DNA of 64,000 nucleotides from Prorocentrum cordatum (taxonomy: Eukaryota), in assembly GCA_963575745.1 (NCBI GenBank), contig CAUYUJ010000225.1, positions 744,001-808,000 of the forward strand, in the 5' to 3' direction. Of the stretch, positions 7,062-56,030 are shown piece by piece. Position 1 is the stretch's first letter. Every line of letters begins with the position of its first letter. The notes beneath the pieces were generated by a model. That model was given only the letters and a program-made list of their open reading frames with translations, was not told the origin of the DNA and ran no database searches. The position numbers were made by a program, and so were the translations under genes.

Positions 7062-7100
<39 letters not shown>

Positions 7101-8115
7101 CCCGTCATCGCCGTCGTCGTCGTCGTCGTCGTCGTCAGCGCCGTCGTTGTCGTCTCCTTCTTCGTCGTCAGCCTCGTCAGCATCGTCGTCGTCGACGCCG
7201 CCGCCGCCGCCGGCGTCGTCGGCGTCGTCGGCGTCGTCGTCGTCGGCGTCGTCGGCGTCGTCGGCGTCGGCGTCGTCGGCGTCGTCGTCGTCGGCGTCGT
7301 CGTCGTCGGCGGCGTCGTCGTCGTCGGCGTCGTCGTCGTCGGCGTCATCAGCGTCGTCGTCGTCGTCGGCATCGGCGTCGTTGGCGTAGTCGTCTTCGTC
7401 GTCGGCGTCATCGTCTTCGTCGTCGTCGGCTTCGTCGGCATCGGCGTCGTCGTCGTAGGCGTCGCCGTCGTTGGCGACGTCGGAGGCGTCGTCGTCGTCA
7501 GCGCCGTCGTTGTCGTCGTTGTCGTCGTCGTCGTCGCAGTCGTCGTGGTCTCCGCCGTCGTCGTCGTCGTCGTCGGCGGCGTCTCCTCCGTCGTCGTCGC
7601 CGCGGCCGTCGTCGTCGTCGTCGTCGTCAGGGCGGCGTCGTGGTCGTCGACATCGTCGCCGTCAACATCGTCATCGTCGTCGGCGTCGTCGTTGTCGTCG
7701 GCGTCATCGTCGTCTGCGTCGTCGTCGTCGGAGTCGGCAACGTCGTCGTCTTCGCGTATTGGTCGTCGGCGTCGGCGTCGGCGGCGTCGGCGTCGTCGGC
7801 GTCGTCGTCGGCGTCGTCGTCTTCGTCGTCTCCGCCGTCATCGTTATCGTCGTCGACTTAGTCGACGTCGTCGTCGTCCTCGTCGTCGCCAGCATCGTCG
7901 TCGTCGTCGTTGTCGGCGTCGTCGTCGGCGTCGGCGTCGTCGGCGTCGTCGTCTTTGTCGTCGTCGGCGTCGGCGTCGTCGTCGGCGTCGTCGTCGTCGT
8001 AGGCGTCGCCGTCGTCGGCGTCGTCGGCGACGTCGGCGACGCTATCGGAGCCGCCGCCGTCGTGGTCGTCGTCGTCGTCATCGTCCCCGTCGTCTCCGTC
8101 GTCGTCGTCGTTTCC

Positions 8116-8148
<33 letters not shown>

Positions 8149-9231
8149 TGCGTCGTCGTCCTAGTCGTCGTCTTTGTCGCCGTCGTCGTCTCCGCCGTCG
8201 TCGTCGTCATCGTCTTCGTCGGCGTCGGCGTCGCTGCCGCCGGCGCCGTCGTCGTCGTCGTCGTTGCTGTCGTCGTCATCGTCGTCGTCTTCGTCGTCGT
8301 CGCCTTCCCTGTCGTCGTCGTCGTCGTCGTCGGCGTCGTCGTCGTCTTCGTCGTCGTGAGCGCCGCCACAGTCGTCGTCCTCCGTGTCGTCGTCGTCGTT
8401 CGCGTCACCGTCGTCGGCGTCGTCGTCGTCACCGTCGCTGGCGTCGGCGTCGTCGTCGTCTTCGTCGTTGTCGGCGTCGTCGCCAGCGTCGTTACCATCG
8501 TCGTCGGCGTCATCGTAGGCGCAGTCGTCGTCGGCGTCGGCGTTGTCGCCCACGTGGTCGCCGTCGTCGTCGGCGTCGTCGTCGTCGCCAGCATCGACGC
8601 CTGGGTCGTCGGCGTCGTCATCGGCGTCCTCCGCGTCGTCGTCGGCGTCGTCGTCGTCGGCGTCGCCGTCGTCGTCGTCGTCGGCGTCGTCGTCTTCGGC
8701 GTCGGCGTCGTCGTCGGCGTCGTCGTCGTCGTCGGCTGAGCCGTCGTCGTCGGCGTCGTCGTAGTCTTCGTCGTCGTCGGCGTCGTCGTCGGAGTCGTAG
8801 TCGTCGGCGTCGGCGTCGTCGGCGTCGGCGTCGTCGGCGTTGCCGTCGTCGTCGGCGTCGGCGTCGTCGTCGTTGTCGGCGTCGTCGTCGACTTTGTCGT
8901 CGTCGGCGTCGTGTCGTCGTTGTCTTTGTCGTCGTCGTCGTCGGAGTCGGCGTTGTCGTCGTAGGCGTCGTCGTCGTCTTCGTCGTCGTCGGCGTCGTCG
9001 TCAGCGTTGACGTCGTCGTCGTCGGCGTCGTCGTAGTCGTCGTCGTTGGCGTCGTCGTCGGCGCCACTGCCGCCACCGCCGCTGTCGTCGTCGTCACCGT
9101 CACCATCCTCGTCGTCGTCTTTGTCCACGTCGTCGTCGTCTCCACCGCCGCCGTGGTCGTCGTCCTCGTCGTCTTCGTCGTCTCTGCCGTCGTGGTCACC
9201 GTCGTCGTCGTCGCCGCCGCCACCGACGCCG

Positions 9232-9279
<48 letters not shown>

Positions 9280-10502
9280 GCGTCGTCGTCGTCTCCGTAG
9301 TCGTCGTCGTCGTTGTCGTCGTCATCGTGTTCGTCGTCGTCAACATACTCGACGTCGTCGTGGGCGTCGCCGTCGTCTTCGTCGACATCGTGGTTCGTCG
9401 TTGGCGTCGTCGCCGGCGTCGTCGTCGTCGTCGGCGTCGGCGTCGTCGTTGTCGTCGGCATCGTCGTCGTCGGCGTCGTTGTCGTCGGCGTCGGCGTTGT
9501 CGTCGTCGTCGGCGTCGTCGTCGTCGTCTTCGTCGTCGTCGACGTCGACGTCGGCGTCGGAGTCGTCGGCGTCGTCGTCGTCGGCATCGTCTTCGTCGAA
9601 AACATCGTCATCGTCTTCGTCGTCGTCCGCGGCGTCGGCGTCAGTTCGTCGTCGGCGTCGGCGTCGTCGTCGGCGTCGTCGGCGTCGGCGTCGTCGTCTG
9701 CGTCGTCGTCGTCGGCGTTGTCGTCTTCGTCGTCGTCGGCGTCGTCGTCGTCGGCGTCCGCGTCGGCGTCGTCGGCGTCGTCGTCATCGTCGGCGTCTTC
9801 GTCGTCGTCGGCGTCGTAGTCGTCAGCGTCGGCGTCGTTGGCGCCGTCGTCTTCGTCGTCGTTGGCGTCGTCGTCGTCGGCGTCGTCGTCGTCGGCATCA
9901 TCGTCGTCGGCGTCTTCGTCGTCGTCGGCGTCGTCGTCGTCGGCGTCCGCGTCGGCGTCGTCGGCGTCGTCGTCATCGTCGGCGTCTTCGTCGTCGTCGG
10001 CGTCGTAGTCGTCAGCGTCGGCGTCGTTGTCGTCGGCATCGTCGTCGTCGTCGGCGTCGGCGACGACGTCGTCCGCGGCGTCGTCGTCATCGTTGTCGTC
10101 GTCGGCATCGTCTTCGTCGTCGTCGGCGTCTTCGTCGCCGTTGGCGCCGTTGCAGTCGGCGACGTCGTCGTCGGCGTCGTCGTCGGCGTTGTCGTCGTCT
10201 TCCGAGTCGGCGTCGGCGGCGTCACCATCGTCGTCGTCGTCGTCGTCGTCTTCGCGTATTGGTCGTCGGCGTCGGCGTCGTCGGCGTCGCCGTCGTCGTC
10301 TTCGCGTATTGGTCGTCGGCGTCGGCGTCGGCGGCGTCGGCGTCGTCGGCGTCGTCGTCGGCGTCGTCGTCGTTGTCGGCGTCGGCGTCGGTGTCGGTCG
10401 TCGGTTTGCGTCGTCGTCGGCGTAGTCGTCGTCGGCGTCGGCGTCGGTGTCGGTCGTCGGTCGGCGTCGTCGTCGTCGGCGTCGTCGGCGTCGTCGTCGG
10501 CG

Positions 10503-10534
<32 letters not shown>

Positions 10535-10812
10535 TTCGTCGTCGGCGTCGCCACCGTCGGCGTCAATCTACTCGGCGTCGGCGTCGTCGTCGTTGTCGGC
10601 GTCTTTGTCGTCGGCGTCGTCGTCGGCGTCGTCGTCTTCGTCGTCCTCGGCCTCTTTGTCGTCGGCGTCGAAAATCGTCGGCGACGCTCTCGTCGGCGTC
10701 GTCGTCGTAGTCGTCGGCGTCGTCGTCGCCGGCGTCGTCGTCGGCGTCGTCGTCGGCGACGGCGTCGTCGTCGCCTTCGTCGTCGTCGCCGGCGTCGGCG
10801 TCGTCGTCGGCG

Positions 10813-10848
<36 letters not shown>

Positions 10849-11750
10849 GCGTCGGCGTCGTCGCCTTCGTCGTCGTCGGCGGCGTCGTCTTTTTCGTCGT
10901 CGGCGTAGTTGTCGTCGGCGTCGGCGTCGACGGCACCGTCGTCTTCGTCGTTGTCGTAGTCGTCGGCGTCGGCGTCGTAGTCGTCGGCATCGTCGTCGTC
11001 GTGATCGGTGTAGTCGTCGTCGTCGTCGTCTTCGTCGTCGTCGTCGCTGGCGTCGCCGTCTTCGCCAGCGTCGGCGTCAGCGTCATCGTCGTCTTCGGCG
11101 GCGTAGTCATCGTCATCGGCGTCGGCGTAGTCGTCAGCGTCGTCGTCGGCGTCGGCGTCGTCGTCGTCGTCGGCGTAGTCGTCGTCGGCGTTGGCATCTT
11201 CGTCGTCGTCGGCGTCGTAGTCGTCAGCGTCGGCGTCGTTGTCGTCGTCATCGTCGTCGGCGTCGTCGTAGTCGTCATCGTCATCGTCGTTGGCATTGTC
11301 GTCGTCGGCGTCGTTCGTCGGCGGCGTCGGCGTCGGCGTCGGCGTCGTCGGCGTCGGCGTCGTCTTCGTGGTCGTTGGCGTCGTCGTCGTCGTCGGCGTC
11401 GGCGTCGTCGTCGTCGCCCTCGGCGTCGTCATCGTCGTCGTCTTCGTCGTCGTCGGCGCCGTCGGCGTTGGCGTCGTAGTCGTCGGCGTCGGCGTTGTCG
11501 GCGTCGTCGTCGTCGTCGGCGTCGGCGTCGGGGTCGTCGTCGGCGTCGGCGGCGTCGTCGTCTTCGGCGTCGGCATCGTCGACGTCGGCGTCGGCGTCGG
11601 CATCGTCGTCGACGTCGGCGTCAGCGTCGGCATCGTCGTCGTCGTCGTCGTCGTCGTCGGCGTCGTCGTCGTCGGCGTCGTCGTCGTCGGCGTCGGTGTC
11701 GGCCTCGGCGTCGGTCGTCGTCGTCGCCGCGGACGTCGTCGCCGTCGTCC
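6180..11750. repeat. About 5.6-kb degenerate (GTC)n array with GCC/GGC variants
   Basis: Directly visible; source of the spurious poly-V/S/R ORFs. Confidence 0.95.
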
Positions 11751-12639
11751 CTCGGGACAAACAAGCGCCCAAGATTCGCCTCCTCGGGCTCAGCCCCTGG
11801 GAGCCCGCTTCGGGCCCCCGGGAGCCGCTGAGAACCTGCTGCGGGGCGTCGGCGTCGTCGGCGTCGTCGTCGTCTTCGTCGTCGTCGTCGGCGTCGGCGT
11901 CTGCGTCGTCGTCGTCGGCGTCGTCGTCGTCGGCGTCGTCGTCGGCGTCGTCGTCGTCGGCGTCGTCGTCGTCGCCGTCGTCGTCGTCGGCTTCGGGCCC
12001 CCGGGAGCCGCTGAGAACCTGCTGCGGGGCAACAGTTGCTGGCCAAGCTGGGCCTTGAGAGGCCTCTCTCGGCGGCGCGCCCGGGGGGCCAGTGAGAGGG
12101 CGAAGGCATTCTCGGAAGGCGGCGGGGCTGCTCCGAACCCCCCGGGCCGTATCCTGAGAAGCTTTCGGTGTCTTCGGGGGAGGCCCCCTCGGACTTCCCC
12201 CCTGGGCTCGCCGCCGAGTCCAGAGACCGACGGTGACCAGGATTCGGGGCCATGGGTCGCCGTCCTCGTCGTCGTTTTCCCGTCGTCGCCAGTCGGTTGA
12301 GGATCGACCGAGAATGGGCACACCGATGCTCTTCCACAACTTCGGCCTCTGGGGGCCGTCATCGGGGCCCCAGGCCATCGGAAATGGATCCGGGACGTCG
12401 TCTCCAACGTCGCAGTCGTCGTCCACGTGGAGAGAAGGATCGAACCTCCAGAAGCGATTTGGACACCTGCAGAAGAACCTCCAAGGGGGTGTCTGGGGAG
12501 CTCCGGAAGCCGCTGGAGACCTCAGGGGATTTCGAAGACCTCTGCTGAATACGGAGGCCTCAAGGGACCTCAGGAGGCCTCGAGGCCTCCAGAGGGGTCA
12601 TCGTCATCGCCGCCACCGCCGACGCAATCGCCGCTGCCA

Positions 12640-28269: not shown

Positions 28270-28991
28270 GCCGGTTTTCAAAATGTGGCTCTCTCATCAG
28301 CGCCGCGCATATTCGTCTTAAAACTTCACGAGAGCTTCACGGCTTGAGGGCGGGTCGTTTTCACAATGTGGCCCTCGCCTTAGCGCCGCACAAATTCGTT
28401 TCAACCATGTGCAAGAACTTCGCGGATTGAGGGCGACTCGTGTTCAATATGTGGCTCTCGCCTTAGCGCCGTACATTAAACATCTGCAACAGCTTTACTG
28501 ATTGAGGGCGGGTGGTTCTCCAACTGTGGCTCTCGCCTTGAAGGCGCGCGCATTCGTTGCTAAAAATTGCAAGAACGTCATGAATGGAGGGCGGCTCCTT
28601 TTCAAAATGTGGCTCTCGCCTTAGCGCCGCGCACATTAGTCTTCAAAAATGGCAGGAGTTTCACGGAGTCGATTGGTTAACGTACCAGAACCGGTGTTCT
28701 GCACATATTATCAGGATTGTCAAGCCTTAACAGCTACGTTGATTCGTGGTGTTGGAATCCCAAGACTGTGTTCTGGCACGATTCGGGATCGTCAAGACGC
28801 AGAAACTCAAGTTGCTTCGTGGCGTTGAAGTTCCAAGAATGGTGCTTTGGCGCGCTTCAGGATCTTCGAACGGTTGTCTCCCAACGGGGCACTTCCCCCA
28901 ATGGCAACGAACCCGTGTAGGGCCCACGACGAGGGAGCTAGGAGGGTTGGTTGATTCAAACATCGTTGATGAGTCTTGGGTCTGCACTGGT
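28270..28991 (+). mobile_element. Dispersed SINE-like family G ending CACTGGT plus (CCT)n
   Basis: Internal about 83-bp subrepeats (GTGGCTCTCGCCTTAGCGCC). Homologous copies at about 20960-21213 (+) and 60610-61240 (-) share the same 3' end. Confidence 0.6.
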
Positions 28992-29420
28992 CCTCCTCCT
29001 CCTCCTCCTCCCGCTCCTCCCTTACCTTCCCCTCCCCCTCCCCTTCCTCCACCTCCTGCTCCTCCTCCTCCTCCTCCTCGTCCTCCTCCTCCTCCTCTTC
29101 CTTCTCCTCTCCCTCCTCCTCCTCCTCCTCCTCCTCTTCCTCCTCCTCCTCCTCCTCCTCCTCCTCCTCCTTGCCCTCCTCCCCCTCCTCCTCCTCGGTT
29201 CCCTCCTCCCTTTCCTCCTCCGCCTCCTCCTCCTCCTCCTCCTCCTCCTCCTCCTCTTCCTTCTCTCCTCCTCCGCCTCCTTCTCCTCCTCCTCCTCTCC
29301 TCCTCCTCCTCATCTCTCCTCATCCTCTCCTCCCTCCCTCCTCTCCTCCTCCTCCTCCCTCCTCCTCCTCCTCCTCCTCCTCCTCCTCCTCCTCCTCCTC
29401 CTCCTCCTCTTCCTCCTCCT
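28992..29420. repeat. (CCT)n microsatellite; related tracts at 27805-28135, 39845-40092, 58840-59115
   Basis: Directly visible. Confidence 0.9.
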
Positions 29421-29431
29421 CTGGCGACAGG
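29415..29431 (+). repeat. Left target-site duplication of the LINE (17 bp)
   Basis: Identical to 37351-37367; lies at the end of a (CCT)n tract. Confidence 0.93.
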
Positions 29432-29453
29432 TCCGTAGCCATTTTGGCTCAAG
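29432..29453 (+). other. Complete dinoflagellate spliced leader (DinoSL) sequence TCCGTAGCCATTTTGGCTCAAG
   Basis: 22/22 match to the DinoSL consensus DCCGTAGCCATTTTGGCTCAAG, directly abutting the left TSD. Confidence 0.97.
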
Positions 29454-29651
29454 GCTCATGCTTTTGCGGGCTGAGCCCGTATTGGCTTTCACGGATACCG
29501 CTAGTCCGCGGCAGTGCCAGAGCCCTTGCGCTCGACAGCTTTCCGCCTACACCGAGGGGTTGGGCTCCCTCGTCAGTTTTGACGCCACGGCCAGGCTGCC
29601 TGGCTACGGAACGGCCATCGCTGCTTTTGTCTCTCGTTCTTTGCGGTCATC

Positions 29652-30827
29652 ATGGCGCCGCCGAAGGGTGCAGCGGCAAGAGACAGGGCAGCACGGGCCA
29701 AGCGATGGGTGTGCAGGCACTGCGCACACGGGAAAACTGGCGAGCCTTGGCACAATCATGCAGATGCTGCTTCTTGCTTCTTGTGTGGTGGGGCCAAAGG
29801 ACGCGTCTACAAGTGTGACCTACCTATTCCTACGCCCAGTGTTCGTGCGCCTCCTTCTGCTGGGGGCAATGCGCGTGCGGCACTGGATGCGAAGGACAAG
29901 GAGTTGGCGGCCCTTCGGAAGCAGGTGCAGCAGCTGCCTCGGGTCAAGCCGACTGAGAATGTGCAGCATGCGCCTCCGCAGCCTGATGCCGCTACCACTA
30001 AGGACGACGCCCAGGGCAAGCAGCAGGAGCTGGATGCGCTGGAGCAGGTTGTTGCGTCCCTCGAGCTGGCGGCCAAGGTTAAGGGCGTTGCCCCGCAGAC
30101 TGTCATCGGCTACGAGGAAGCTCAAACATCTCTTCGAAAGTTGCGGCAGGAGATCCATGATGCTAAGTCTTTGAGTGCGCAGGTGCATGGCATTGGCAAT
30201 AAGATTCAGAAGGCAGATCAGCAGATTGCGAAGCTCAAGACCACTATCGAGTCGGAGGAGCAGGCCATTGCTGAGAAGCAAGACTTGGTGGTTGATCTCA
30301 AGCAGCAATTGGAGACCAAAGAAAAGGCTCGGGTGCAGTTACAGAGGGAGCAGATGGAGTTGTTGCGTGCTCGTACGCCTGAGCAGGTCACTCATGCTCC
30401 TGAAGGCAGCGACCAGGCGGTGTTCGACACTTTCACGGCCAGTCTGGAGCAGCTGCAGAGCCTGGTTCAGTCCCTTGGTGGCGGTGCGCAGTTGGCTGCC
30501 AGCTGCGCCCAGTTCGTGGAGCCCTGGCTTGAGCAGGTTCGGAAGCAGCGAACCGAACAGCAGGAGCAGCTTCGCGCGCAACAGCAGCAGCCACAGCAGC
30601 AGCAGCGCCCCCCTGAGCCGCCACAGCAGCAAGCTGAGCAGCCTGTTCGGCCCGAGCATGTTGACATGCCTGTACCTGAAGATATGGACCTGGAAGATCT
30701 TCGGACCTTTGTGGCTGAAGCTGGGTTGGAAGCCAGCGCTGATGAGACGGAGCTGCGTGCCCAGGCCAAGCGCCAGCTGGACTCTTGCCAGAAGCTGCTG
30801 GCCAAGAAGCTCAAGGTCGATGCTTAG
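29652..30827 (+). CDS. LINE ORF1 protein, 391 aa: N-terminal RanBP2-like zinc finger and long coiled coil
   Basis: Intact ATG-TAG ORF about 200 nt after the SL. Motif WVCRHC...N...SCFLCG, heptad-rich Q/E/K/L middle region, position upstream of pol. Confidence 0.85.
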   Translation: MAPPKGAAARDRAARAKRWVCRHCAHGKTGEPWHNHADAASCFLCGGAKGRVYKCDLPIPTPSVRAPPSAGGNARAALDAKDKELAALRKQVQQLPRVKPTENVQHAPPQPDAATTKDDAQGKQQELDALEQVVASLELAAKVKGVAPQTVIGYEEAQTSLRKLRQEIHDAKSLSAQVHGIGNKIQKADQQIAKLKTTIESEEQAIAEKQDLVVDLKQQLETKEKARVQLQREQMELLRARTPEQVTHAPEGSDQAVFDTFTASLEQLQSLVQSLGGGAQLAASCAQFVEPWLEQVRKQRTEQQEQLRAQQQQPQQQQRPPEPPQQQAEQPVRPEHVDMPVPEDMDLEDLRTFVAEAGLEASADETELRAQAKRQLDSCQKLLAKKLKVDA

Positions 30828-32284
30828 GCTCGTGCTCCTGATTGCCATCACTATCGGCACCATGGCGGCAGATTCCCATACCTTCGATTTCGGCGACGAC
30901 TTTGAGCAGTTGTGTGCCGACCCTGGCTTCGACCAGGGCGACTTCTTCGGGCTCTCCGAGCAGGACACTAGAGCATTTGGAGGACCTGCTGATGCAGGTG
31001 GTGGCAGCGAACGCCTACGTGCGGATCCTGGGGCGCTGCCAGATGCTTTTGTTCCTGCCCATGCTGATGATGGAGGGCATCAGGCGTTAGATCGCAAATC
31101 CTGGGTTGCCAGTGGTAGCTCAGGTTCGCAGTCGCGCCTGCGTCCACCACCCTCCAGGGCACCCCTTCCACAGGAGGCGGGGGGAACAGCGAGTGGGGGT
31201 GGGGGGCGCAGGGTTTTGCTGGACTTCTCTCTCTCATGGCGATGTCGCGGGCAGTGGCACGACGTGGGGCAGCAGTCCAGGACGCCTCCATGAGCCAGCT
31301 CGGATGCCTGCACCACCTGACCCAGTGCAGGACTACCAGGACATGCGCCAGGACTTACGCGACTGGGCGGCGCTCTGGTTTGACAGCCACGCACAGATTC
31401 CACGGGATGGACGGCCTTGGGTCGAGTGGTGCACTGCCTTTCTGTCCACCTTGATCGGCCGTGATGCCAATCTTCCTTTACGCCAGTTGCTCTTGTCTTG
31501 GTTTCCTGGAAGGAGCCTTCAAGATATATTTGGTGAATTATGTTCTTCGGCATGGCGGCAAACTGAGGGACGACGAGAGGCCTGGTTCATGCGCCTCGCT
31601 GGTCGTGAGCCTGGCGCCGCTCAAAGGCTTGAGCACAGGCATTGGAGAGCTCTCGCCGAGGTTCGAGCGACGTTCCGCCGAGTGCTGGGCGACCAGGCCC
31701 CAGACGTCAGGAACCCACCACCTGCTCGACAACCTCATTCAGATGATGACCAAGCGGGCGAGCCTTTGGACTCGGTCATCGCGCAGTTGGTGGCGCTGTC
31801 TTTCAGGCCGACAGCTTCTACTTCAGCTACACCTACGCCTGCATCCACCAGTTCTTGGGGTGGGTCAGCGGCCATGCAGGAGGATGTCACGACGGCTCCG
31901 ACGGGTGCGACCAGCACTGGAATCTCTAACATAGGATCCAGGCCACATGCCTTGCTGGAATCCAGCCCGAGTCGCCACGAACTCCGTCAGAACGCGTCTG
32001 GGCAGGTTTTCCCTGGGGTTCTGGGCCCCTGCTTGCCTCAGGCTGACGCCGAGCGGCGGGAGGTTTCTTGGGGGGGCCTTTCGGCCTCATCGGCTCACGC
32101 CACCGCTGGCCCCCTTGTGCCTGTCGAGGGTTTGCAGAGGCCTGACGGGTCCCAGGGCTCACTTCCTACCTTAAGTGGCATAGGGTTGAGCCACGCGGAC
32201 CCCAATCTGCCATCGGCTCCGACTGGGAAGGCCCGACGCCAAGCCGGCGACAGAGCTAAGCGCAGCCTGCTCTCGCTCAAGGGT

Positions 32285-32960
32285 CAGGTCGCGGCGGTCA
32301 ACGTCAGCTCGCATGGCTCCCTCTTCGAGTACATGCCAGGCATTGGCGACGACGTGAAGGTGCTGCTAGTTCAAGAGCACCACTTGCTGCCCGAGCGCCT
32401 CCAGCAGGCGCAGTCTCAGGCTCGTGATATTGGCTGGCATGGGATATGGGCTGCTGCGACGCCGAGTACGGCCTCGACGGGCTCGACAGCAGGGGTCGCG
32501 ATTCTGGTTCGCACGGACGTGATGATCACCGCCCCTATTTTGGCCGAGAAGGAGGTCGTCGCTGGAAGATGTTTGTTTGCGCATATTCACTGGGGTGTGC
32601 CTGGCGGCTTCACAGCTGGCAGCATTTACCTCGACACGAAGGATGGCATGGGCCCAGTCAACACGGCCTACCTGTGGGAGACGGTCAAGGCACTCTCGAG
32701 GCTCAACAGCCAGGGGGTGGACTGGCTCATCGGTGGGGACTGGAATAACCAGCCAGCTGAGCTTTTCTCGTACAGCTGGGCTACGGCAGCCTCGGCCATT
32801 CCCTTCTGCCCAAAGTTGCCGACGTGCAGGCAGGCCCAACCTGGGACTATACTTGACTACTTTTTGGTTTCTGCAAACTTGGCAGCACGAGTAGACTCCC
32901 ATGTTCGGGTGGATGAAGGGGCGACCTTATACCCTCATTGTCCAGTACATCTGCAAGTGC
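32285..32960 (+). other. Apurinic/apyrimidinic-like (EEP) endonuclease domain of LINE ORF2
   Basis: Motifs AVNV, LLVQEHH, GVAIL, GSIY, IGGDWN, LDYFLVS, PHCPV. Confidence 0.9.
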
Positions 32961-33859
32961 TTGGACAGGACTACCCGCTATGGAGGCTCGTGCCGAATTT
33001 GCCCAAGGAGCTACCACTACAGGCCCCTACTGGATGCTCGAGGTTCCCTTACCATTGGGATGCTACCAGCTTCGAGGTGGCCGACGATGCTGAAGGGCTT
33101 GCAGCTTGTATGGACGACTTGATGATTGGTGTCGAAAAGGAGCTCACCAACCGCTACGACCATGTGGGGCCTGCTGCGCTGCGCTATTCAGGCCGAGCGG
33201 GGGCGACCTCCTTCACGTGGCGGAAGGTTGCCTGACAGCCACCCCTCAAGCGCACCTACAAGCGCCCTCAGACCTTGGCCTGGAAAGTGGTACTTCGATG
33301 GTTTATGCACATTCAGAAGGAGCGTGACAGACTTCGTACGCTGGTCACCAGGCTTCAGATGGCCCACGTGCTTTGCGATATTGACCCGCCCCAGTGCGCA
33401 GTCCTACTGCAGGCTCTCAGTGAAGTTGGTGGGTTTCTTCGTAACATTATGCGCAGCCATGTGGTGCTCCACCAGATGCCTGAGAACGTGCAGGCCTTCT
33501 TGAACTCTGGGCTGCAGGTTTTGGTCGCACCTGGCTTCGAGGACCTTCTGCGCTCGGTCGGGAACGAGGCCACTCGGCTGCGCAAGGAGGACCAGCGTGA
33601 ATCCTACCGAGCCTGGATGCAGTTCCAGCGCAAGGCCTTTCAGTCAGGGGCCCCCATTGCTCACCGCGCCACCAAGGTGCGGCCGCTGGAGCAGGTTGTC
33701 GCATATCAACGGCGGCCTGCAGATGCTCAGCCACAGGCTCTAGCGAATCGGGACATGAGGACTTGGGTTGATGTCTGGACCCATCATGGCTGCCTACCAG
33801 TCCAGCCTCCTCTTGAGGCCGCAGAGTGGCCAGCTCTGCCGAAGCTCGACGCCGCCACC

Positions 33860-34760
33860 TTGAGGAAGGTGATATTGACATTCCCTAGAAAGACCTCGAC
33901 TGGGCCCTGTGCATTACACCCACGCTTGCTGTGGCACCTGTCAGATGAGTCGCTCGAGATGCTGGGCAGTTTCTTTGCAAGGTGCGAGCAGTTACTCGCA
34001 TGGCCTGCAGATCGGCTCTGGTCGATGATGCGTCGTATTCCCAAGGCTGATGAGGGACATCGCCTGATTGCGGTGGTCCACACGTTCCAACGCATTTGGG
34101 GCAGGGCTCGACGTGGCATCTCTCGGCAGTGGGAGCAGCAGCATCGCACGGACAACGTGTGGGGCAACAGGTCCCGCTACACCTCGTCGGACAGCGCTTT
34201 CAGCCACAACTTGGATTCGGAGGTGGCGGTGCTGAGGGGCCAGTTCAGTGCGACGGTCCTACTGGATCTCACGAAGGCCTTCGACATGGTGCGGCCGTCG
34301 CAGCTGTTTCGCGAGGGCTGCTTGCTTGGCTACCCACCGAGGATGCTGTGCATGTTGCTCAAGATGTACGCCCAGCCGAGGAGCCTCAAGGGGTACGGCA
34401 CTTTCTCCGACATGGTGCAGGTGGACCAAGGCATTCTAGCTGGATGCGCGCATGCCGTCTGTATGCTTGAGTGCCTCACGTTACGTGCCATCCTACGCTT
34501 GCGCGACACCTACGCTGGAGTTGTGCCACGGGCTCTTGTTGATGATGTGTCGGTTCAGTACGCTGGGCCTGATCCAAAGGGCCTACTTGCACTTGATTTG
34601 GCTGTGCGAATATTTCAGGAGGACTCGAGAGTGCTTGGTTCTTGCTTTAATGACAAGAAGTCGGGGCTGGTTGCTGCGACGGCCGCTTCTCGTCAGATCT
34701 TGCGAGGCTCTAGTTTGCACGTCGGCGGTGGATGCGTAACCTTGGCCACGAGACCTTCGG
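33860..34760 (+). other. Reverse transcriptase domain of LINE ORF2
   Basis: IPK..GHRLIAV, LLDLTKAFDMV, QGILAGC, LVDD (34535-34546), then RNLG in the shifted frame. Confidence 0.92.
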
Positions 34761-35809
34761 CAGTCGCCCTATTCGGTTGCAAGAGAAGGCCCGCCTTCGT
34801 GATCTTCAGAAGCGACGGCAACGGCTTCATCTTTTTCGCCAAGTTGCTGGTCGTAAGAACTCAGTGATCTGGCGGGCGGGAGCACAACCTGCTGTGGCCC
34901 ATGGTGCGGGTGTTTCGGGCATGACCGACTCAGCTCTTGTCACGGCCAGGTCAGTTGCTGCTACCATGGTGGGGGCACCGCCGAGAGCGCACAAGACGGC
35001 CTACTTGTACTGCCAGTGGCAGGTGCGATACGACCCGATCTTTGATGCGACGACGGCGCTGCTGTGTATGCTGCATTGCTTTATCTGGGATGCTCGTGTG
35101 CCTCTCAGTGCGCTTCGACATGCATGGTTGAGTTTGGCAGATCGTGTTAACGACAAAGGGCTCACCTGGGCGGCGGTTCGCGGCCCACTGAGTGCGGCCT
35201 GGCTCACACTTAACAGAATTGGCTGGACATTTCTTGGACCTCATCACTGGCGTAGCGACCAAGGTGAGGACTTTGATCTTCTGCGAGTGGCACCAGCCGA
35301 CATGAAGGTATTTCTTGAAGAATCGATCAAGCGGTGGCAGGTGCAGCGGCTGGCTTATCACTTGCCTGTGCAGGAGGCTTCTCACGATGTCTGGGAACGA
35401 GCTCTTCGACTTGGGCTACGTGACTTGAGGCAGGCGCCGCTTGGAGCGCTGAGGGCACTGTGGGCTGATCGGTACCCCACTGCTGCCCGCCTTGCTGCCT
35501 GGGGAAAAGATGTGAAGGTGCACTGTGCAGCTTGTCAGTCAGATGATGGATCTTTCGGGCATGTTTGGCTTGGATGTCCCAGCTTGTTGCAGCCCGATGA
35601 GAGCGAGGAGGCTTCTGGTGTTGAGGTTTTGTGTGAGCGGCACGCGTCTCATCGGGATGCTCTGCGAGCTCTTGGACACCGCTCCCCGCTCGATCCTGAG
35701 TTTGACCGTCTCTATTTTAGTTATGGTTTTCCGAGGCTCTCGATCCAGCTTCCATCCCCGCCTGAATCGTCGGTGGCCTGGGAGTGGGGTGACGTTGGGG
35801 GTGAGTGGG

Positions 35810-36265
35810 GGCCTGTTACTTTCGGGGATGGAAGCGCACAGCACCCCGCCGTGCCTGAAGTTAGGCGCGCGGGGTGGGCCATTGTTCAGCTCAACGACGC
35901 GCTCCTCCCTGTCCGTGCGGTATTTGGATCCCTGGAGGGTGCTGTCCAGACCGTGGGCAGAGCGGAGAGAACTGCGCTTCTGCACGCCATGAGGCGTAAT
36001 CCCAGCTTGGAGGTTTTCGTTTCAGATTTGCTTTCTCTGGTTCAGGAAGGTTTGTCTTGGGACCCCGAATTGGCGTGCGGAATGAATAGGTACGCTGCAA
36101 TTTGGAGGAGTGTCTTTGAGTTGGCGCAGCGTCGGCCTGCCCAGGACCCTCCCCCTCACTTCGTCTGGACCCCCGCTCACCTCTCTCTTGAGGAAGTCCT
36201 GGAGCGAAAGCTGGACCCGATAACCTGGATCGGGAATGCTTGGGCCGACCTGTTTGCCAAGCTTG
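35810..36265 (+). other. RNase H domain of LINE ORF2
   Basis: FGDGS...AGWA...QTVGRAE...FVSD...WTPAH...GNAWADLFAK gives the D-E-D-D catalytic set. Preceded by CAAC-x8-HVWLGC at about 35524-35577. Confidence 0.9.
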
Positions 36266-37350
36266 CGTCGACACGGGTCATGATGGCTAGGACGACGGCA
36301 GAGGCTGTCGCAGGCGAGCTCAAGTTTCATCGTGCTACCATCGATTATATTTCCTGGGCTGCTGCCAGGCTCGCTCGACTCCGACGGTGGACCAGTCTGC
36401 CCCCGCCGTCGAGTGTCTTTCGACCCCAGCCTGGGCCGCAGCTCAGCTTGCATGGTCATTCTTTCTTCCTCGACCATGATTCAGGGGAGGTGAGATGTCT
36501 CTCGTGTTTTGTCGGGGCCTGGACCTGCAGCACCTTGGCGCATCTGTGTAACGGCCCCTCCAAGTTTTGCCGACCCTCGGCCCTTTCAGCCCTTAAAGGG
36601 CAAGAGTGGTTGCGTGTTCGAAATCGAGCGCGGCCTGTGAAGGCCGCGGCGGTGGCCGAAGCGGACCAGGCCCTTGAGGCTGTGGGTTTGCTGCCACCTC
36701 CTCTCCCTCCTGGAAACCCCTCGGGAAACGAGAGTGAGGCGGCCATCCGTGATTTTGAGTCGAGAGGTCACACGATTGAGAAGTATGATCGTGTGATGAT
36801 TTGCTCTATCTGTGCAGGCTTTGTTGTGCTCCCGCATGGTGTCCCTCGTGCTCTGATGGCTACTTGTCAGGGTGCCTCCAGGGTCCCTTCGACCAGGGAC
36901 AAGCAGCTGCGGAAGCTTTCCAAGGCCTCGAGAGGCCTGCACCCTTCGACGGGCGAGGTCCTCTCCCGTGCCCAGGGCCCCTCTCCCTCCTCGCCTATGT
37001 CCTCCCCTCAGCAGTCTTCCTCCACGGTATCCATGGTGGCCAGAGCCCTCCGACTTGAGGAGGCTGCCACTTCCGATGGTGGGGGGGCGGGGCGGGTGGA
37101 GCGGGCGGGCGGGATTTCGGACGACTCTGATTAACCTGTTTTGTTTTTCTTGGCCTCGGCGTCGTCGTCGGTCGTCCGTCGGCCGTCGTCGCCGCCGTCG
37201 CCGCCGTGCTGCTGCCGCTGGCGGCCGCACCCTGCACGTGAAGAGCGGCGAGAGCGTGCCAGGCGCGCCCTGCTGCTTTCCGCGTTCTCTCCTTTGCCTA
37301 GCCTGATGGCGTTCGTTGCCCTGCGGACGCTCTCCAGTCGGCGCCCACCA

Positions 37351-37367
37351 CCTCCTCTGGCGACAGG
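37351..37367 (+). repeat. Right target-site duplication of the LINE (17 bp)
   Basis: Identical to 29415-29431. Confidence 0.93.
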
Positions 37368-38034
37368 ATCTTGCAGCAGGTTCCTCGCGTGCCTCCGCCG
37401 CCCCACAAAGAAACGTGGCCCTGCGCCCGTCGGGGGGGCCAGAACATGCCGCTCAGGAGGCCCTTGGTGGAGCCCCCGGGTGGAGCGGCAACATCCTGGA
37501 GCCCCTGGTGGGGCCCCCGGTGGAGCCCCCAGTGGAGCCCCCGGGTGGAGGATGTTCGCGCTGGCAGTGTCCAAATTCGGACGCCCGAACTATCCTTGAT
37601 AACTCTGGCCCATGGCAACTCCGGTTTGGGCCAAGAGTGACCTTCGGTGCGGACCGCGAAGGGGGCCAGATCCAAGCGCGCAGGCCAATGCTGGGGGGCA
37701 CCCGTGGGCCCGCACCAAAGGTCACTCCGTGTGACCCTGTCTGGCCGCCACTTCAACACCCCGAGGTCCTCGGCGACATGCAAGAGTGACCCTAGGCAAG
37801 AGTGACCTTTGATGCGCGGCCCAAGGGAGGGCCCTTTGGGGACACCACCAGGCCCGCAAGCCGGTGCTATCGCATCGCATGAGGCGATCGGGGGGCCCGT
37901 TGGGCTCGCACCAAAGGTCACCCCAGCGAAAGGTCACTCTCACGTATAGCCGAGATCCGACGTCGTCACGACTGGAGCCCTGGACCGCATCTTGCTGCGG
38001 CAGCTCTCGCGCCAGATCGATCTATGAAAGAATA

Positions 38035-49755: not shown

Positions 49756-50940
49756 CACTTTGCCCCTCCCCGACCTCGGGTGCCTCAGTGTGCTGAGCTG
49801 CGCCGGACGGGGGCGAGGGCGACTGCGGCGGCCCCCGGCCCAAGAGAGGGCTGCGCTCGACAGCCCACCGCACGCACGCGCACGCTCTCGTCCTCCGGAC
49901 GCTCTTCTCGATCCCATCCCGCCTACGTTGAAGGGGCCCCGGGACACACAAATAAACACACACAAATAACAGGATTCCCCACATTTCCCATATTTTCTGG
50001 GTTTCTGGCTTCCCCCCACTTCCCATATTTTGCCACATTTTCGTGGGAGTCGACGGTGACGTGTGTCTGTGTGTTTTTCCCCCTCCTGATACGTGCACTC
50101 CCACGGGAACGAAAAGGAGGAGGTGGGCGACTCCGCGCCTCCCCTCCGCGCCCACCTGGCGACACCCTGCAGACGGATCGGGCCGTGAGTCCGACAGACG
50201 CCCCCGAGAGCCGAAGTGGCGGAAACCTGATAGCCCTGACCTTGCCAGGACGCCGGCTGGGCAATACCAAAGGGAGGTCACGAAGAGGGGTGTCACCGCC
50301 TCTTCTCGAGAACAGACCCCTCAGGACTCCCAGAACACCCCAGAAACTCAAAGCACGAAGTCGTCGGGAAACCCCTTCCATCATCGAACTTCGACCCTCA
50401 GGAGGAGTTGGCGACACCCCCCTCCAGGGAGGAGCTGGCGACGCCCCACCACCCAAGAAGCTGGCAACGCGCACGGCTGGATTCGCAAGAGGATCGTCTG
50501 GGGGGCCCACCACCGGACACACACCTGGTGTCTGACCATAGGTGGGTGGCAAAGAATCCACCCTCAGAATAATCACCCCGACACGCGAAGCCACCCAGAG
50601 AAGGAATCTAACAGGGCGGGGCTGTTTAGTAAGTGCCCAGGGCCGTTGAGCAAACGCCAACTACCGGGTCTGGGTAAGGGCCGAGCGCTGGAGACGCATG
50701 CGGTCCAGCTCTTGGCCGGGCTGCCCACGCCATGTGTACCCAGCTTCCTGGTCGTGCCGACTCCCCATGGCCCTGCGGCGGCGGCGGCGACCCCATGGCA
50801 CCGCCTGCGTTGGAGGCACGGGCCATGTCGCCTAACCCCTTGCGCCGACTGGGGCCCAATCCCGCGACTGGCCCCTGCGACGAGAAGGCCCATCGGCCGC
50901 CGTTGCGCAGCCCCGACGACCAACGACGACGACGACTGAC

Positions 50941-51002
<62 letters not shown>

Positions 51003-51023
51003 ACCGACGACTCCGACGAAGAC

Positions 51024-51056
<33 letters not shown>

Positions 51057-51121
51057 TCCGACGACGACCCCGCGCCGGCCGCGCCGACCGAGCGGCTGAG
51101 CCGCGCGGCCCCCGGAAACGC

Positions 51122-51331
51122 TCTCGGCGGCGGCCCGCGTCCGGCCGCAGGCGACCCCGGCGCGGGGGCGGCCCGCGGCGGCGGCGCGAACGCCGCCACC
51201 GCGCCGGCCGCCGCGCCGGCGGCCGCGTGGGGCGCGGGCGCCGCCGCCGCGGCCGCCGCCGCCACCGCGCCAGCCGCCGCCGCGGCGGGCAGCGGCACCG
51301 CCCGGACGCGGCGGGCTTTCTGCGTCCGGGC
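51122..51331 (-). CDS. Tentative Ala/Pro-rich upstream exon
   Basis: ARTQKARRVRAVPLPAAAAAGAV...PPPR, an open GC island between GTC arrays. Boundaries are guessed. Confidence 0.25.
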
Positions 51332-51349
51332 CTCGGGCGGCCGCCGCCG

Positions 51350-52409
51350 CCACCACCGTCGTCCTCGTCGTCGTCGTGATCGTCGTCGTCGAGGTCGTCT
51401 TGGTCATGGTCGTCGTCGTCGTCGTCGTCGTCGACGTTGTGGTCGTCGTCGCCGCCGCAACCGCCACCGCCAGCGCCACCGGCGTCGTCGCCGCCGGAGC
51501 GGCCGGCGCCGCCGTCGTAGCCCACCGCCGCCGCCACCGCCGTCGTTCGTCGTCGTCGCCAGCGCCGCCACCTACGCGGCCGTCGTCGTCGTCGTCCTTG
51601 TTGTCGTGGTCGTCGTCGCCGTCTTCGTAGCCGTCGTGGTCGTCGTGGTCGTCGTGGTCGTCGTGGTCGTGGTCGACGTCGTGATTGTCGTCGTCGACGT
51701 CGTGGTCGTCGTCGTCGTCGTCGTCGTTGCCGTCGTCGTGGTCGTCGTCGTCGTCGTGGTCGTCGTGTTGTCGCCGTCGTCGTCGTGGTCGCCGTCGACG
51801 TCGTTGTCGCCGCCTCCACAGCCGACCGCCGTCATTCGTCGTCGTCGATATCGTCGTCGCAATCGTCCTCGCCGTCGTCATCGACGTCGTCGTCGTGGTC
51901 ATCGTCGTCGTCGTCGTTGTCGTAGCCGTCGTCATCGTCCTCGCCGTCCGCCACCATCACCCCACCATTCGTCGTCGTTGTCGCTGACGTCGTCGTCTCA
52001 AATGTATTCGTCGTCGTCGTCGTCGCTGTCGCCGCCGCCAACCGCCTCATCGCCGTGATCGTCGTCGTTGTCGACGCCGTCGCCGCAGCCGCCGCCATCG
52101 TCGTCGCCGTCGTCGTCGTGGTCGTCGTCGTCGTCGCCACCGTCGTCGTCGCCGCCGTCATCGTCGTCGTGGTCGTCGCCGCCGTCGCGGTCGTCGTCGT
52201 CGTCGCCACCGCCACCGCCGCTGTCGACCGTCGTTCGTCGTCATCATCGTCGTCGATGTCGTCGTCGCCGTCGTCGTCGTCGTCGTCAACGTCGTCGTCG
52301 TGGTCGTCGTCGTCGTCATCGTCCTCGTGGTCGTCGTCGTCGCCGTCCGCCGCCGACGCCATCGTTTGTTACGATCGTCGTCGTTGTCGTCGTCGAGGTC
52401 GCAGTCGTG

Positions 52410-52448
<39 letters not shown>

Positions 52449-54479
52449 ATCGCAGTCGTCGTCATAGTCGTCGTCTCGGGGTGGTCGTGGCCGTGATCGT
52501 CATCTTCATCTTCATCGTCGTCGTCGAGATCGTCGACCACCGCCCTCGTCGTCGTGGTCGTGGTCGTGGTCGTCTTCGTCGTCGCCGCAGCCGACGTTCG
52601 TCGTGGTCGCCGTTGTCGTTGTTGTCGTTGTTGCCGTCGCCACCACCACCGTCGTCATCGCTGTCGTCGTCGTCGCCGTCGTCGTCGTTGTCGCCGTCGT
52701 CGTCGCAGCCACCGCCGTCGCCATCGCCTTCGTCGTCGTGGTCGTGGTCGTCGTCTTCGTCGCCGCCGCCACCAACGTCATCATCGTCGTCGTCGTCACA
52801 GCCGTCGCCCTCGTCGTCGTCGTCGCAGCCGCCACCGCCATCGTTTTTCGTCGTCATCGTCGTCGGCGTCATCGTGGCCGTCCTCGTCGTCGTCGTCGTC
52901 GTGGTGGTCGTCGTCCTCGTGACCGACGTCGTCGTTGCCGTCGCAGTCGTCGTCGCCGCCGGCGCCATCGTTCGTCGTCGTCGGCGTTCGTCGCCGTCGT
53001 CGTCGTCACCGTCGTCGTCATCGCCGCCGGCTTCGTTCGTCTTGGCCGTTCGTCGTCGCCGAGGTTGTGGTCGTCATCGTCGTGGCCGTGGTCGTGGTCG
53101 AGGCCGTGGTCGTGGTCGTGGTCGACGTCGTGGTCTTGGTCGTCGTCGTCGGCGTCGTCGTTGTCGTGTCCGTCTTCGTCGACGTCGCCGCCGCCACCGC
53201 CGTCGTCGTCGTCGCCATGGTCGTCGTGATGGTCGTCGACGTCGTGGTCGTCGCCGTCGCCGCCGGCGCCGTCATCGTCACAACCGACACCACCACCGCT
53301 GCCGTCGTCGTCGTCGTGGTCGTCGTCGTCGTCAGCATCGCCGTCGTGATCGTTGTGGTCGTCGTGGTCGTCGTCGTTCTCATCGTCGTGGTCGTCGTCG
53401 TCGTCGCAACCGCCACCGTCGCACGCCGCCGCCACCACCGCCGTCGTCGTCGTCGTCGTCGTCGTCGTGGTCGTCGCCGTCGTCGTCGTCGTGATCGTCG
53501 TCGTGGTCGTTCTCGTCGTTGCCGTCGCCCGCCACCGATGCCATCGCCGTCGTCGTCATCGTCGCCGTCGTGATCGTCGTCGTCGTTGTCGTCGAGTTCA
53601 TCGCCGCCGCCGTCGTGGTCGTCGTCGTCGTATTCGCCGCTCGCTCGCCCGCTCGCTCACTCGCTCGCGCGCTCGTGTGTTCGTCGTAATCACCGTCGAC
53701 GTCGTCGTCGTGGCCGTCGCCGTCGTGGTCGTCGCCATCATCGTCATAGCCGTCGTAGTCGTCGTGGTCGTACTGGTCGTCGTCATTGTCGTCGTCGTCG
53801 TCGCAACCAGAGTCCGTTCGTCGTCGTCGTCGGAATCGTCGTCGTCGTAGTCGTAATCGTCGTCGTCGTCATCGTCGCCGTAGTCGTCGTCGTGGTCGCC
53901 GCCGTCCACCACCGTCGCCGTCGTTCTTCGTCGTCGCCGCCGTCGCCGTCGGAATCGTCGACGTCGTGGTCGTCGTCGTCATCGTCGTCGTCTTGATCGT
54001 CGTCGTTGTCGTCGCCGTCATCGTCGTCGCCGTCCGCCGCCGCCGTCGTTCACCGTGGTCGTCGTCGACGTCGTCGTCGTCGACGTCGTCGCGGTCGTCG
54101 CCACAGCCACCACCGCCGCCAAGGCCTTTGTCGTCGTGGTCGTCGTCGTGGTGGTCGTCGTCGTCACCGCGGCCGCCGACGTTCGTCGACACTCCTTTCG
54201 TCGCCGCGGCCGCGGTCGTCGGCCACGTCGTCGTCGCCGTCGTCGTCTTCGTCATCGTCGTGGTCGTCGTCGTCGTGGCCATCGTCGTCCTCGCAGCCGC
54301 GGCCGCCGCGCGTCGCCGTCGCCGTCGTGGTCGTCATCATCGTGGTCGTCGTCGTCGTTGCCGTCGTCATCGTCGACGTTGTCGTTCGTCGTGGTCGTGA
54401 TCATGGTCGTCGTCTGCTTCATCGGTGTCGTCGTCGTTGTGGTCGTGGTCGCCGGCCGCCGTCGTCGTCGCCGCCGGCG

Positions 54480-54519
<40 letters not shown>

Positions 54520-55191
54520 GGTCGTGGTCGTCGCCGCCGTCGTCGTCGTCGACGTCGTTGTTGCCGTCGTTGTCGTCGTCACCGCCGCCGTCGTTCGTCG
54601 TCACCATCGCCGCCGTCGTTCAGTCGTGGTCGCGGTCGTTGTCGAGTCGCGATCGTGGTCGAGGTCGTGCTCGTGGTCGTGCATCGTCGTCGTCGAAGTC
54701 CATGTCGACGTTTCGCCGCATTGCGCGGTCGGCATCGTCGTCGTCGTCCCTGTCGCGGTCGTGGTCGAGGTCGTGCTCGCGGTCGACGCCGTCGTCGTGA
54801 CAGTCGTGGTGGTGATCGTCGTCGCCGCCGTCGCCGTCGTCGTCGACGTTGCCGTCGTCTTCGCAACTGCCGCCGTCGCTCGTCGTCGTCGTCGTCCTCG
54901 CCGTCGTGGTCGTCGTCGTCGTCGTCGTGGTCGTGGTCGTCGTCGTGGTCGTCGTCGTCGCTTTTCCGTTACCGTCGCCGCCGTTGTTCGTCGTGGTCGT
55001 TCGTCCTGGTCGTAGTCATGGTCGTTCGTCCTGGTCGTCGTTACTGACGTTGTCGTCGTAATCGCCGTCGTCGTCGTCGCCGACGTCGTCGCAGCCGCCG
55101 CCGTCGCCGCCGCGGTCGTCGTCGCCACCGCCGCCGCCGTTCGTTGTGATCGTTCGTCCTGGTCGTGGCCATGGTCGTGGTCGTGGTCGGA

Positions 55192-55223
<32 letters not shown>

Positions 55224-55301
55224 GGTCGTCGCCGCCGCCGTCGCCGTCGCCGTCGTCGTTGCTGCCTCCGCCGCCGCCGCCGCCACAGCCGTCGCTCGTC
55301 C

Positions 55302-55345
<44 letters not shown>

Positions 55346-55665
55346 ACGGTCACGGTCGTGGTCGTCGTCGTCCTCGTCGCCGTCGTCGTTGTGGTCGTCG
55401 TTGCCGTGATCGTCGTCGTTGTCGTCGTTGTGGTCGTCGCCGCCGTCGCCGTCGTCGTCGTCGCCGACTTCGTTCGTCGTGGTCATTCGTCGTCATCGTG
55501 GTTGTGGTCGTCGTCGTCGTCGCCGCCCGCCGTCGTCGTTGTGGTCGTTGTCGCCGCCGCCGCCGCCGTCGTCCTCGTCCTCGTCGTCGTCGTCGTCGTC
55601 GTGGTCGTCATCGTTGTCGTCGTCGTGGCCGTCGTCGTCGTCGACGACGTCGACGTCGTCGTCCG
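51350..55665. repeat. About 4.3-kb degenerate (GTC)n array with GTG/GCC variants
   Basis: Directly visible. Confidence 0.95.
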
Positions 55666-56030
55666 TCGAGGCGTGAGGGCCTGGCGGTGTGGTGGGGGCT
55701 GCAGGCTCCTCCGGCGTTTCTCTCGGGCCACCCACGGAAGGCGAGGACTTGGAGCTCCTCCTCCTCCTTTTCCTCCCCTTCCTCCGTCTCCTCCTCCTCC
55801 TCCTCCTCGTCCTCCTCCTCCCTCCTCGAGGCGCGAGCCGCAGCCGCAGCCGCAGCCGTGTCGCCCTTCCGAGCACGAGCTGTCCTTTCCAGCATCGGCC
55901 CAGCGCGCCGCTCGCCGCAGAGCGACCGCGCCGTGCAGGCGTTGGGAGGCTGTTGTCTGCCTCCGCCTCCGCCGCTGTCGCAAACCACGGCGCCGCCGCC
56001 TCCCCCGGCTCTTCTCGGCTACACGCGAGA

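Follow-up and report, generated by a model that had tools for sequence, protein, structure and literature searches.

How does a retrotransposon come to begin, to the base, with the spliced leader (SL) that its host adds to nuclear messenger RNAs (mRNAs) by trans-splicing? This question is raised by a long interspersed nuclear element (LINE) in a stretch of 64,000 nucleotides from the dinoflagellate Prorocentrum cordatum (contig CAUYUJ010000225.1, positions 744,001 to 808,000 of the forward strand), which is here called the window and to which all coordinates refer unless another locus is named. Dinoflagellate genomes hold many retrogenes that are marked by spliced-leader relics. The original prediction for this locus was that a full-length LINE starts with the complete dinoflagellate SL (DinoSL) inside its target-site duplication (TSD), that the leader was part of the reverse-transcribed RNA, and that the element may depend on trans-splicing rather than on an internal promoter. 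We find that the SL-headed LINE is real and that the finding is generalisable.

The leader lies inside the target-site duplication

The complete 22-nt DinoSL, TCCGTAGCCATTTTGGCTCAAG, occupies positions 29432-29453 of the plus strand, and its first base, T, is also the first base of the insert. This 22-mer fits the published DinoSL consensus DCCGUAGCCAUUUUGGCUCAAG, which is printed in the Methods of PMC8045281 and in the Introduction of PMC5585692. The 21-mer core of the leader has a single match in the 64-kb window, even with three mismatches allowed, and no match was present in any of 100 shuffles. The TSD is a 17-mer, CCTCCTCTGGCGACAGG, with exactly two matches in the window, at 29415-29431 and 37351-37367 (shuffles giving two, 0/100), and it can be extended to 20 nt, with the left copy from 29412, at the cost of one mismatch. 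The last base of the left TSD directly precedes the first base of the SL, and the predicted start of the leader is thus exact to the base. Since the SL lies within the TSD, it belonged to the inserted complementary DNA (cDNA) and not to the target, which supports the proposal that it came from the reverse-transcribed RNA.

The leader is followed by a 5' untranslated region (UTR) of 198 nt, where about 200 nt had been predicted, and then by open reading frame (ORF) 1, ORF2, a 3' UTR without poly(A) and the right TSD. This is the order that had been read from the sequence, with apurinic/apyrimidinic endonuclease (APE), reverse transcriptase (RT) and RNase H encoded in ORF2. A repeat search of the element revealed no long terminal repeats (LTRs), terminal inverted repeats or other terminal repeats, and the 64-kb window holds no second copy, only low-complexity matches to the repeat of the 3' UTR. 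The 7.9-kb element is a non-LTR retrotransposon, or LINE, with an APE endonuclease, full-length, multicopy and now inactive. The prediction of a full-length LINE stands, with the correction that the copy is not intact: ORF2 is broken by a TGA at 33233-33235 and by a 1-nt deletion behind 34711.

A second SL-headed LINE and other leader sites

We scanned prokaryote-labelled genome contigs with the DinoSL 21-mer and obtained 20 stretches from 19 loci with 21 sites. Seven of these sites are SL RNA gene-like, with GTAC behind the SL, while at 12 the leader is followed by other sequence; L011 has a leader with two tandem relics, and at L017 just 11 nt lie downstream of the leader. The contigs, filed under metagenome-assembled genomes (MAGs), are evidently misbinned dinoflagellate DNA, i.e. 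eukaryotic contamination. The SL RNA genes on L006/L019, L007, L012 and L018 consist of SL, GTAC, about 35 nt and a T-run, and two SL RNA gene sites lie 9.5 kb apart on one MAG contig.

A translated search (tblastn) with the RT family set placed all 137 of its 137 matches on a single locus, L013. This locus carries a LINE of about 8.9 kb that is embedded in a (GA)n tract, is headed by the leader (Table 1) and has no stop within ORF1 or ORF2. Its ORF1 contains a RanBP2-type zinc ribbon (31.1 bits), and its uninterrupted ORF2 of 2536 aa reaches the Pfam cut-offs for Exo_endo_phos (36.7 bits), RVT_1 (43 bits) and RNase_H (25.9 bits). The cut-offs used throughout, in bits, are 24.5 for Exo_endo_phos, 27.5 for zf-RVT, 29.6 for RVT_1, 27.4 for Exo_endo_phos_2 and 27 for the RanBP2 finger. 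At the 3' end, about 35 nt behind ORF2 are followed by A6 and then by (GA)n again (9005-9073). The RT of L013 is only 27% identical to that of the window (E=4e-11), and the G+C content is 70% for the L013 contig versus about 60% for the window element. The only part shared between the two ORF1s is the finger motif, for which the comparison with the RanBP2 finger of L013 is not significant (E=0.27), and the UTRs are unrelated. The SL head is thus not a one-off: two distantly related LINEs begin with the leader, and what was read in the window recurs in an element with intact ORFs.

Another site, L008:8983-9040 on the minus strand, holds a bare 21-nt SL between identical 19-mers, which looks like a solo SL insertion with its own target-site duplication. 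Simple repeats adjoin several of the leaders. The (CCT)n of the window stops 12 nt ahead of the SL, and the tracts of the retrocopy-like sites L001:1-38, (GT)n-like, L004:1-31, (TCA)n, and L015:1-34, (GACA)n, directly adjoin the SL. The integration machinery may favour simple repeats as targets, a pattern that is partly confounded by contig breaks at repeats.

Coding content and decay of the window copy

Table 1. Features of the SL-headed LINE in the window and of the L013 contig
Feature	Position	Strand	Description
Left flank	28990-29414	.	About 425 nt, (CCT)n-rich polypyrimidine tract; insertion at its 3' edge
Left TSD	29415-29431	+	17 bp
DinoSL	29432-29453	+	22 nt, complete
5' UTR	29454-29651	+	198 nt
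ORF1	29652-30827	+	391 aa
Possible true ORF2 start segment	30862-31293	+	Frame 1
ORF2 part A	31091-33235	+	Frame 2; APE-type endonuclease ~32360-32905
ORF2 part B	33236-34867	+	Frame 2; reverse transcriptase ~34037-34672, LVDD at catalytic motif
ORF2 part C	34714-37134	+	Frame 1; RT thumb remainder, zf-RVT ~35455-35583, RNase H-like ~35809-36243, C-terminal extension
3' UTR	37135-37350	+	216 nt, no poly(A); GCC/GTC-rich simple repeat ~37150-37226
Right TSD	37351-37367	+	17 bp, then unique flank
L013 contig, 9096 nt			(GA)n flank 1-116, SL 21-mer 117-137, 93-nt UTR, ORF1 231-1343

The endonuclease of ORF2 is recognised by Pfam as Exo_endo_phos above the cut-off (30.8 bits, E=3e-7), and many homologues align across 32222-33283. 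The RT of the window taken alone has a weak RVT_1 score (E=0.011), and a PDB sequence search with this piece gave 0 matches. With the same piece as query, an exhaustive search yielded 2341 homologues at E<=1e-3, of which 793 have E<=1e-10 and 38 have E<=1e-30, and the LVDD of the window aligns with their catalytic motif. When 25 long RT homologues were scanned, eight reached the cut-off for RVT_1, five had Exo_endo_phos and two had RNase_H; 11 of the 25 had no domain and one had solely an unrelated domain. The structural neighbours of one RT homologue, P0003, are RT-like and weak. In part C of ORF2, zf-RVT scores 26.1 bits (E=1.4e-5), slightly below its cut-off, and the same part aligns to the finger and RNase H of L013 with E=0.001 to 0.01. 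In the window, RNase H is assigned by its alignment (E=0.001) to the corresponding domain of L013, which is Pfam-positive.

ORF1 has an N-terminal CxxC...CxxC finger-like motif and a long region that is both coiled-coil and Q-rich. A Pfam scan of ORF1 gave no family at cut-off, a homologue search returned none at near lengths, and a DNA methyltransferase (DNMT) family is absent from ORF1 even at E<=10. An ORF1-like N-terminus is present in gene model P0002, and one Prorocentrum cordatum protein model joins ORF1-like and ORF2-like parts. Of four protein matches, the top three are unnamed products of Prorocentrum cordatum, with identities of 92, 66 and 58%, which points to a dinoflagellate host.

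The two lesions of ORF2 are missing from relatives of the window copy. The in-frame TGA aligns to Trp in the 96%-identical P0001 and to Arg in P0002. Behind 34711, an extra A is present in 5/5 covering contigs from four sequencing runs (see below), and restoring it connects the RT frame to the continuation "...MRNLGHE..." of P0004, P0005 and P0015. The window copy, with a stop and a frame-breaking deletion, is dead. Moreover, an ATG in frame 1 at 30862, 35 nt behind the ORF1 stop, may be the true start of ORF2; this would need a change to frame 2 near 31201 (31091-31293). One nucleotide is missing at 31201 in one contig of run X1 and not in the contigs of runs X2 and X5. Another ATG, at 29458, lies 4 bases behind the leader and would be the first AUG on the SL-capped element mRNA. 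It opens a 239-codon frame (29458-30174) that overlaps the ORF1 start in another frame, is rich in R, S and L, and is probably non-coding.

The element (29432-37350) is depleted in CpG, with an observed/expected ratio of 0.77 versus 1.15 for the whole window. Its differences to the X1 contigs are on the sense strand about twice as often C/T (113 + 129 places) as G/A (59 + 56). Taken together, the depletion and the C/T excess suggest methylation-linked or strand-specific decay. As for the remainder of the window, low-complexity GC-rich repeats occupy about 4300-12600 and 50600-56000, with very long low-entropy frames such as 4587-11828, and they have short similarity to the repeat of the element's 3' UTR. 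None of the 54 ORFs scanned in the flanks reached the cut-off for any family, and no recognisable host gene was found among them.

Family copies in public sequencing runs

Logan contigs from four runs of three studies were aligned to 29395-37450; the contigs are short, and 29395-29426 was skipped as repeat. Run X1 yielded 616 pieces with identities of 88-100%, of which 98 are at >=99%, 203 at 95-99%, 261 at 90-95% and 54 below 90%. In three metagenome runs, 60, 23 and 60 element contig pieces were found. The LINE family is dispersed, multicopy and diverse.

Several of these contigs are informative for the 5' end. X1, X2 and X5, which come from three studies, each contain one contig of a variant in which a 1-nt gap falls at 29457, 4 nt behind the SL, and which has additional changes at 29490 and 29492. 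Placing the gap at 29457 requires that the alignment reaches into the leader, so a diverged lineage keeps the same SL-UTR junction, which is thus recurrent. Among 12 of the 18 indel rows there is no insertion at the SL/UTR junction, and stacked SL relics are at least not common in the family. A further diverged X1 contig covers 29563-29779 with 17 differences, which means that the joint between UTR and ORF1 is shared as well. Run copies diverge in the repeat of the 3' UTR, as seen from loose ends at 37190 and 37206 and from a drop in depth in the last bin.

The head of the element is far more abundant than its body. In X1 the depth is 540-746 at 29457-29524 (616 at 29457) versus 24-135 in the body bins, so that the head 29454-~29600 reaches 5-10 times the body depth, and it is also deeper in X2 and X5. 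Contigs depart from the element at 29514, at 29537-29540 and at 29600, and at 29600 the same continuation occurs in two studies. Such a 5' excess is the opposite of the usual 5' truncation of LINEs. The head is possibly common to other elements or short derivatives and not an ancestral LINE UTR. A search of 29300-29800 against Rfam returned no family and two sub-threshold chance matches, and the fold of the 5' UTR is not unusual (z = -0.63). Patterns restricted to the UTR had 0 matches in viral_contigs and 0 in metagenome_contigs; the RT pattern set A3 had 598 matches in metagenome_contigs and 46 in viral_contigs, none of which was confirmed by tblastn. One X5 contig joins 29453 to 30059 with 21 nt on the SL side. 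As an internal trans-splice site this joint is ambiguous and was rejected, the skipped part ending in TC and not in AG.

Leader sites in giant viruses

The exact DinoSL 21-mer is also present in IMG/VR, mostly in giant-virus MAG bins (L020-L137), where 119 stretches contain 134 unique sites. In the AT-rich bins these sites lie directly behind a few conserved AT-rich motifs of about 30 nt and ahead of short UTRs and ATGs. GT(A/G) follows the SL at one site only, and no RT homologue was found downstream of the SL at the 134 unique sites. This looks like leader mimicry, in which the virus encodes the host's leader downstream of a promoter-like motif of its own, or like mass capture of host cDNA. 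A search by title and abstract found no paper on DinoSL sites in giant viruses.

Origin of the leader

We consider it probable that the SL was acquired by ordinary trans-splicing of the element's mRNA and that target-primed reverse transcription then copied this mRNA completely, up to its last base. As judged from the sequences compared here, the element mRNA would receive its leader like host nuclear mRNAs, the element's machinery would reverse-transcribe this SL mRNA, primed at the target, through to the cap-proximal base, and the cDNA would be integrated at a nick adjoining the (CCT)n tract. Two further steps are more speculative. Read-through transcripts that enter a copy may undergo a new round of splicing at the former SL/UTR junction or close to it, because daughter copies have one clean leader and no stacked relics, and the element might need no promoter if host transcription reads through it. 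A promoter-less element that is re-spliced at the terminal AG of its relic, as the original prediction proposed, is a speculative picture that would fit the single clean leaders of the two copies seen.

A different origin, which we regard as unlikely, is a single past capture of the SL, which has since been encoded in the DNA, with transcription from the element's own promoter starting at the first SL base. This would account for an SL-UTR junction inherited across diverged copies without stacked relics. The conserved and over-represented 5' head could then be an internal promoter, comparable with Pr77 of L1Tc/ingi, and the 134 giant-virus sites show that other parasites of these hosts have DNA-encoded SL heads. 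However, an internal promoter normally fixes the start relative to itself, so that a leader upstream of the old start (+1) would be lost unless it were added again, and the 5' UTR has neither a special fold nor an Rfam family. The SL on two LINEs with unrelated UTRs is more simply explained by a host process that acts on any mRNA. Marginally less credible still is a template switch, in which the RT jumps from the 5' end of an uncapped or unspliced LINE RNA to a free SL exon or SL RNA, or to an SL-headed host mRNA that supplies the SL and a head of about 170 nt, giving a chimera comparable with those of U6 and L1. LINE-1 chimeras with other RNAs are known (10.1101/2025.02.02.635956, in the part available), the solo SL of L008 implies that a bare SL can be inserted, and the head is far commoner than the body and has variable continuations. 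These points have to be set against an SL-UTR junction that lies at the same nucleotide in the diverged variant of three studies and against the joint of head and ORF1 in a diverged contig. The constant junction in diverged copies means that any chimera would be ancestral and by now the family's own 5' end. Moreover, L013 has the same architecture with an unrelated UTR, and SL RNA would bring part of its intron, of which there is none here.

There is hardly any probability left for an SL-gene-targeting LINE of the SLACS/CRE/NeSL kind, for a chance resemblance or for an assembly chimera with a cDNA. SL-associated LINEs occur in trypanosomatids and nematodes. The flanks of the window element are (CCT)n and unique DNA without an SL RNA gene, its endonuclease is of the APE type, and its SL is complete, sits within the TSD and continues into GCTC and the UTR, versus the intron start GTAC at the 7 SL-gene-like sites. 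This anatomy (flanks, UTR behind the SL, endonuclease) refutes an SL-gene-targeting LINE and agrees with the original distinction of the element from SLACS/CRE. Neither the 21-mer nor the 17-bp repeat is anywhere near what chance would give (0/100 shuffles each), and the perfect TSD speaks against a mis-join in the assembly.

Some observations weigh against trans-splicing followed by complete copying as the source of the leader. Among 22 of 102 loose-end rows, none marks an alternative flank ahead of 29432, in an alignment of short contigs that skipped 29395-29426. The over-abundant 5' head may be a module that is shared with, or was captured from, other elements. The base before the 21-mer of L013 is C and not A, G or T, so the first SL base may be missing from this copy. 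Two more loci are weak candidates. The leader of L016 precedes an ORF of 266 aa and a second ORF whose Exo_endo_phos_2 score, 20.1 bits, misses the cut-off; a PDB search with the L016 ORF gave nothing relevant, and the comparison with the window APE was not significant. The RT-like ORF of L008, 4 kb downstream of the leader, scores 25.6 bits for RVT_1, also below the cut-off. Finally, retrogene transcripts usually keep a truncated (15-nt) relic according to the passages of PMC12014239, so that splicing precisely at the last AG of the relic is not the documented norm. Transcripts spliced at the last AG would escape retrogene surveys of the relic type.

A wider proposal, built on the trans-splicing of element mRNAs, is tentative and in our judgement clearly less likely than that step itself. 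Dinoflagellate LINEs may be a promoter-less class that depends on SL trans-splicing by the host, with the 3' AG of the leader or the junction serving as acceptor on read-through transcripts, so that each cycle would restore an identical capped 5' end. The SL-plus-head module would be shared among families and non-autonomous derivatives, and the same enzymes, nicking preferentially at simple repeats, would make SL-tagged retrogenes.

Significance

Full-text searches, in the passages that they returned, gave no report of dinoflagellate LINE copies that start with the DinoSL inside TSDs. An SL on the mRNA of a LINE is to be expected where nuclear mRNAs are SL trans-spliced, with partial precedents in Schistosoma and Hydra. 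The window LINE and L013 together indicate that LINE mRNAs enter the SL pathway and that such elements are copied to the capped end. The SL-headed LINE thereby links the LINEs of dinoflagellates with their SL-relict retrocopies, i.e. with the copying of mRNAs into DNA.

The enzyme that makes these retrogenes has only been guessed at, as "presumably LINEs" or Ty1/copia, in the passages of PMC5585692 and PMC3942190. We infer that LINEs such as these are at present the strongest candidates, and concrete enzymes can now be named, for example the intact ORF2 of L013. That such a LINE is the engine of dinoflagellate mRNA recycling, as had been proposed for the window element, is plausible, and one observation is added to it, namely copying through to the first SL base. 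On the wider proposal, the same simple-repeat-nicking enzymes would have made the SL-tagged retrogenes that have inflated dinoflagellate genomes. The leader also suggests how a LINE could dispense with its own promoter where conventional transcriptional control is scant.

Comparison with known systems

SLACS, CRE, CZAR and NeSL-1 insert into SL RNA genes and have a restriction-like endonuclease. Like the element of the window they are LINEs physically associated with SL sequences; they differ from it in that the window LINE has an APE endonuclease, another target and the SL within its own cDNA. The trypanosomatid L1Tc/ingi elements are also LINEs, SL trans-splicing is pervasive in their host as well, and they have a short conserved 5' head across retroposon types. 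As far as the available descriptions go, their head, Pr77, is an internal promoter and ribozyme and their transcripts are unspliced, which is the opposite solution to bearing the host leader.

The idea that transposon transcripts use the host's SL trans-splicing has been raised for two other hosts. Boroni 2018 (PMC5832876, in the part available) gives six SL-containing (retro)transposon models of Schistosoma mansoni, which might be trans-spliced retro-transcribed elements or an assembly artefact, and in Hydra about 30% of the Iso-Seq reads of transposable elements bear the SL (passages of PMC12220107). The Hydra evidence consists of transcript data, whereas the SL of the window was read in the DNA, exactly at the 5' end and inside a TSD, and was met again in L013.

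Closer in anatomy are the SymbioLINEs of de Mendoza et al. 2018 (PMC5890265), described in its main text with TSDs, UTRs that are conserved at both ends, no poly(A) and an ORF2 of Exo_endo_phos, RVT_1 and RNase_H. The term "spliced leader" occurs nowhere in that main text, and its supplements might show the 5' ends. The window element shares with the SymbioLINEs, so described, the TSD, the lack of poly(A), the APE-RT-RNase H order and the depletion in CpG. Unlike SymbioLINE-Dnmt, it has an ORF1 without a DNA methyltransferase.

The nearest relatives in process are the DinoSL-relict retrogenes of dinoflagellates, which were reportedly described by Slamovits and Keeling in 2008. These, too, are SL-capped RNAs copied into DNA that begin with the leader, as at 29432-29453, and presumably arose by the same route of reverse transcription and integration. 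In Song et al. 2017 (PMC5585692), "RNA-dependent DNA replication" was over-represented in the set of genes with relicts, and the authors suspected retrotransposons of driving retroposition, with no SL-headed LINEs described in the passages available; a 2019 preprint (10.1101/783902), in its accessible part, inferred the two processes to be independent. What sets the window element apart from the relict retrogenes is that the copied RNA encodes the machinery itself, that the TSDs are clear, and that the leader is complete and single, whereas the relics of retrogenes are truncated or stacked.

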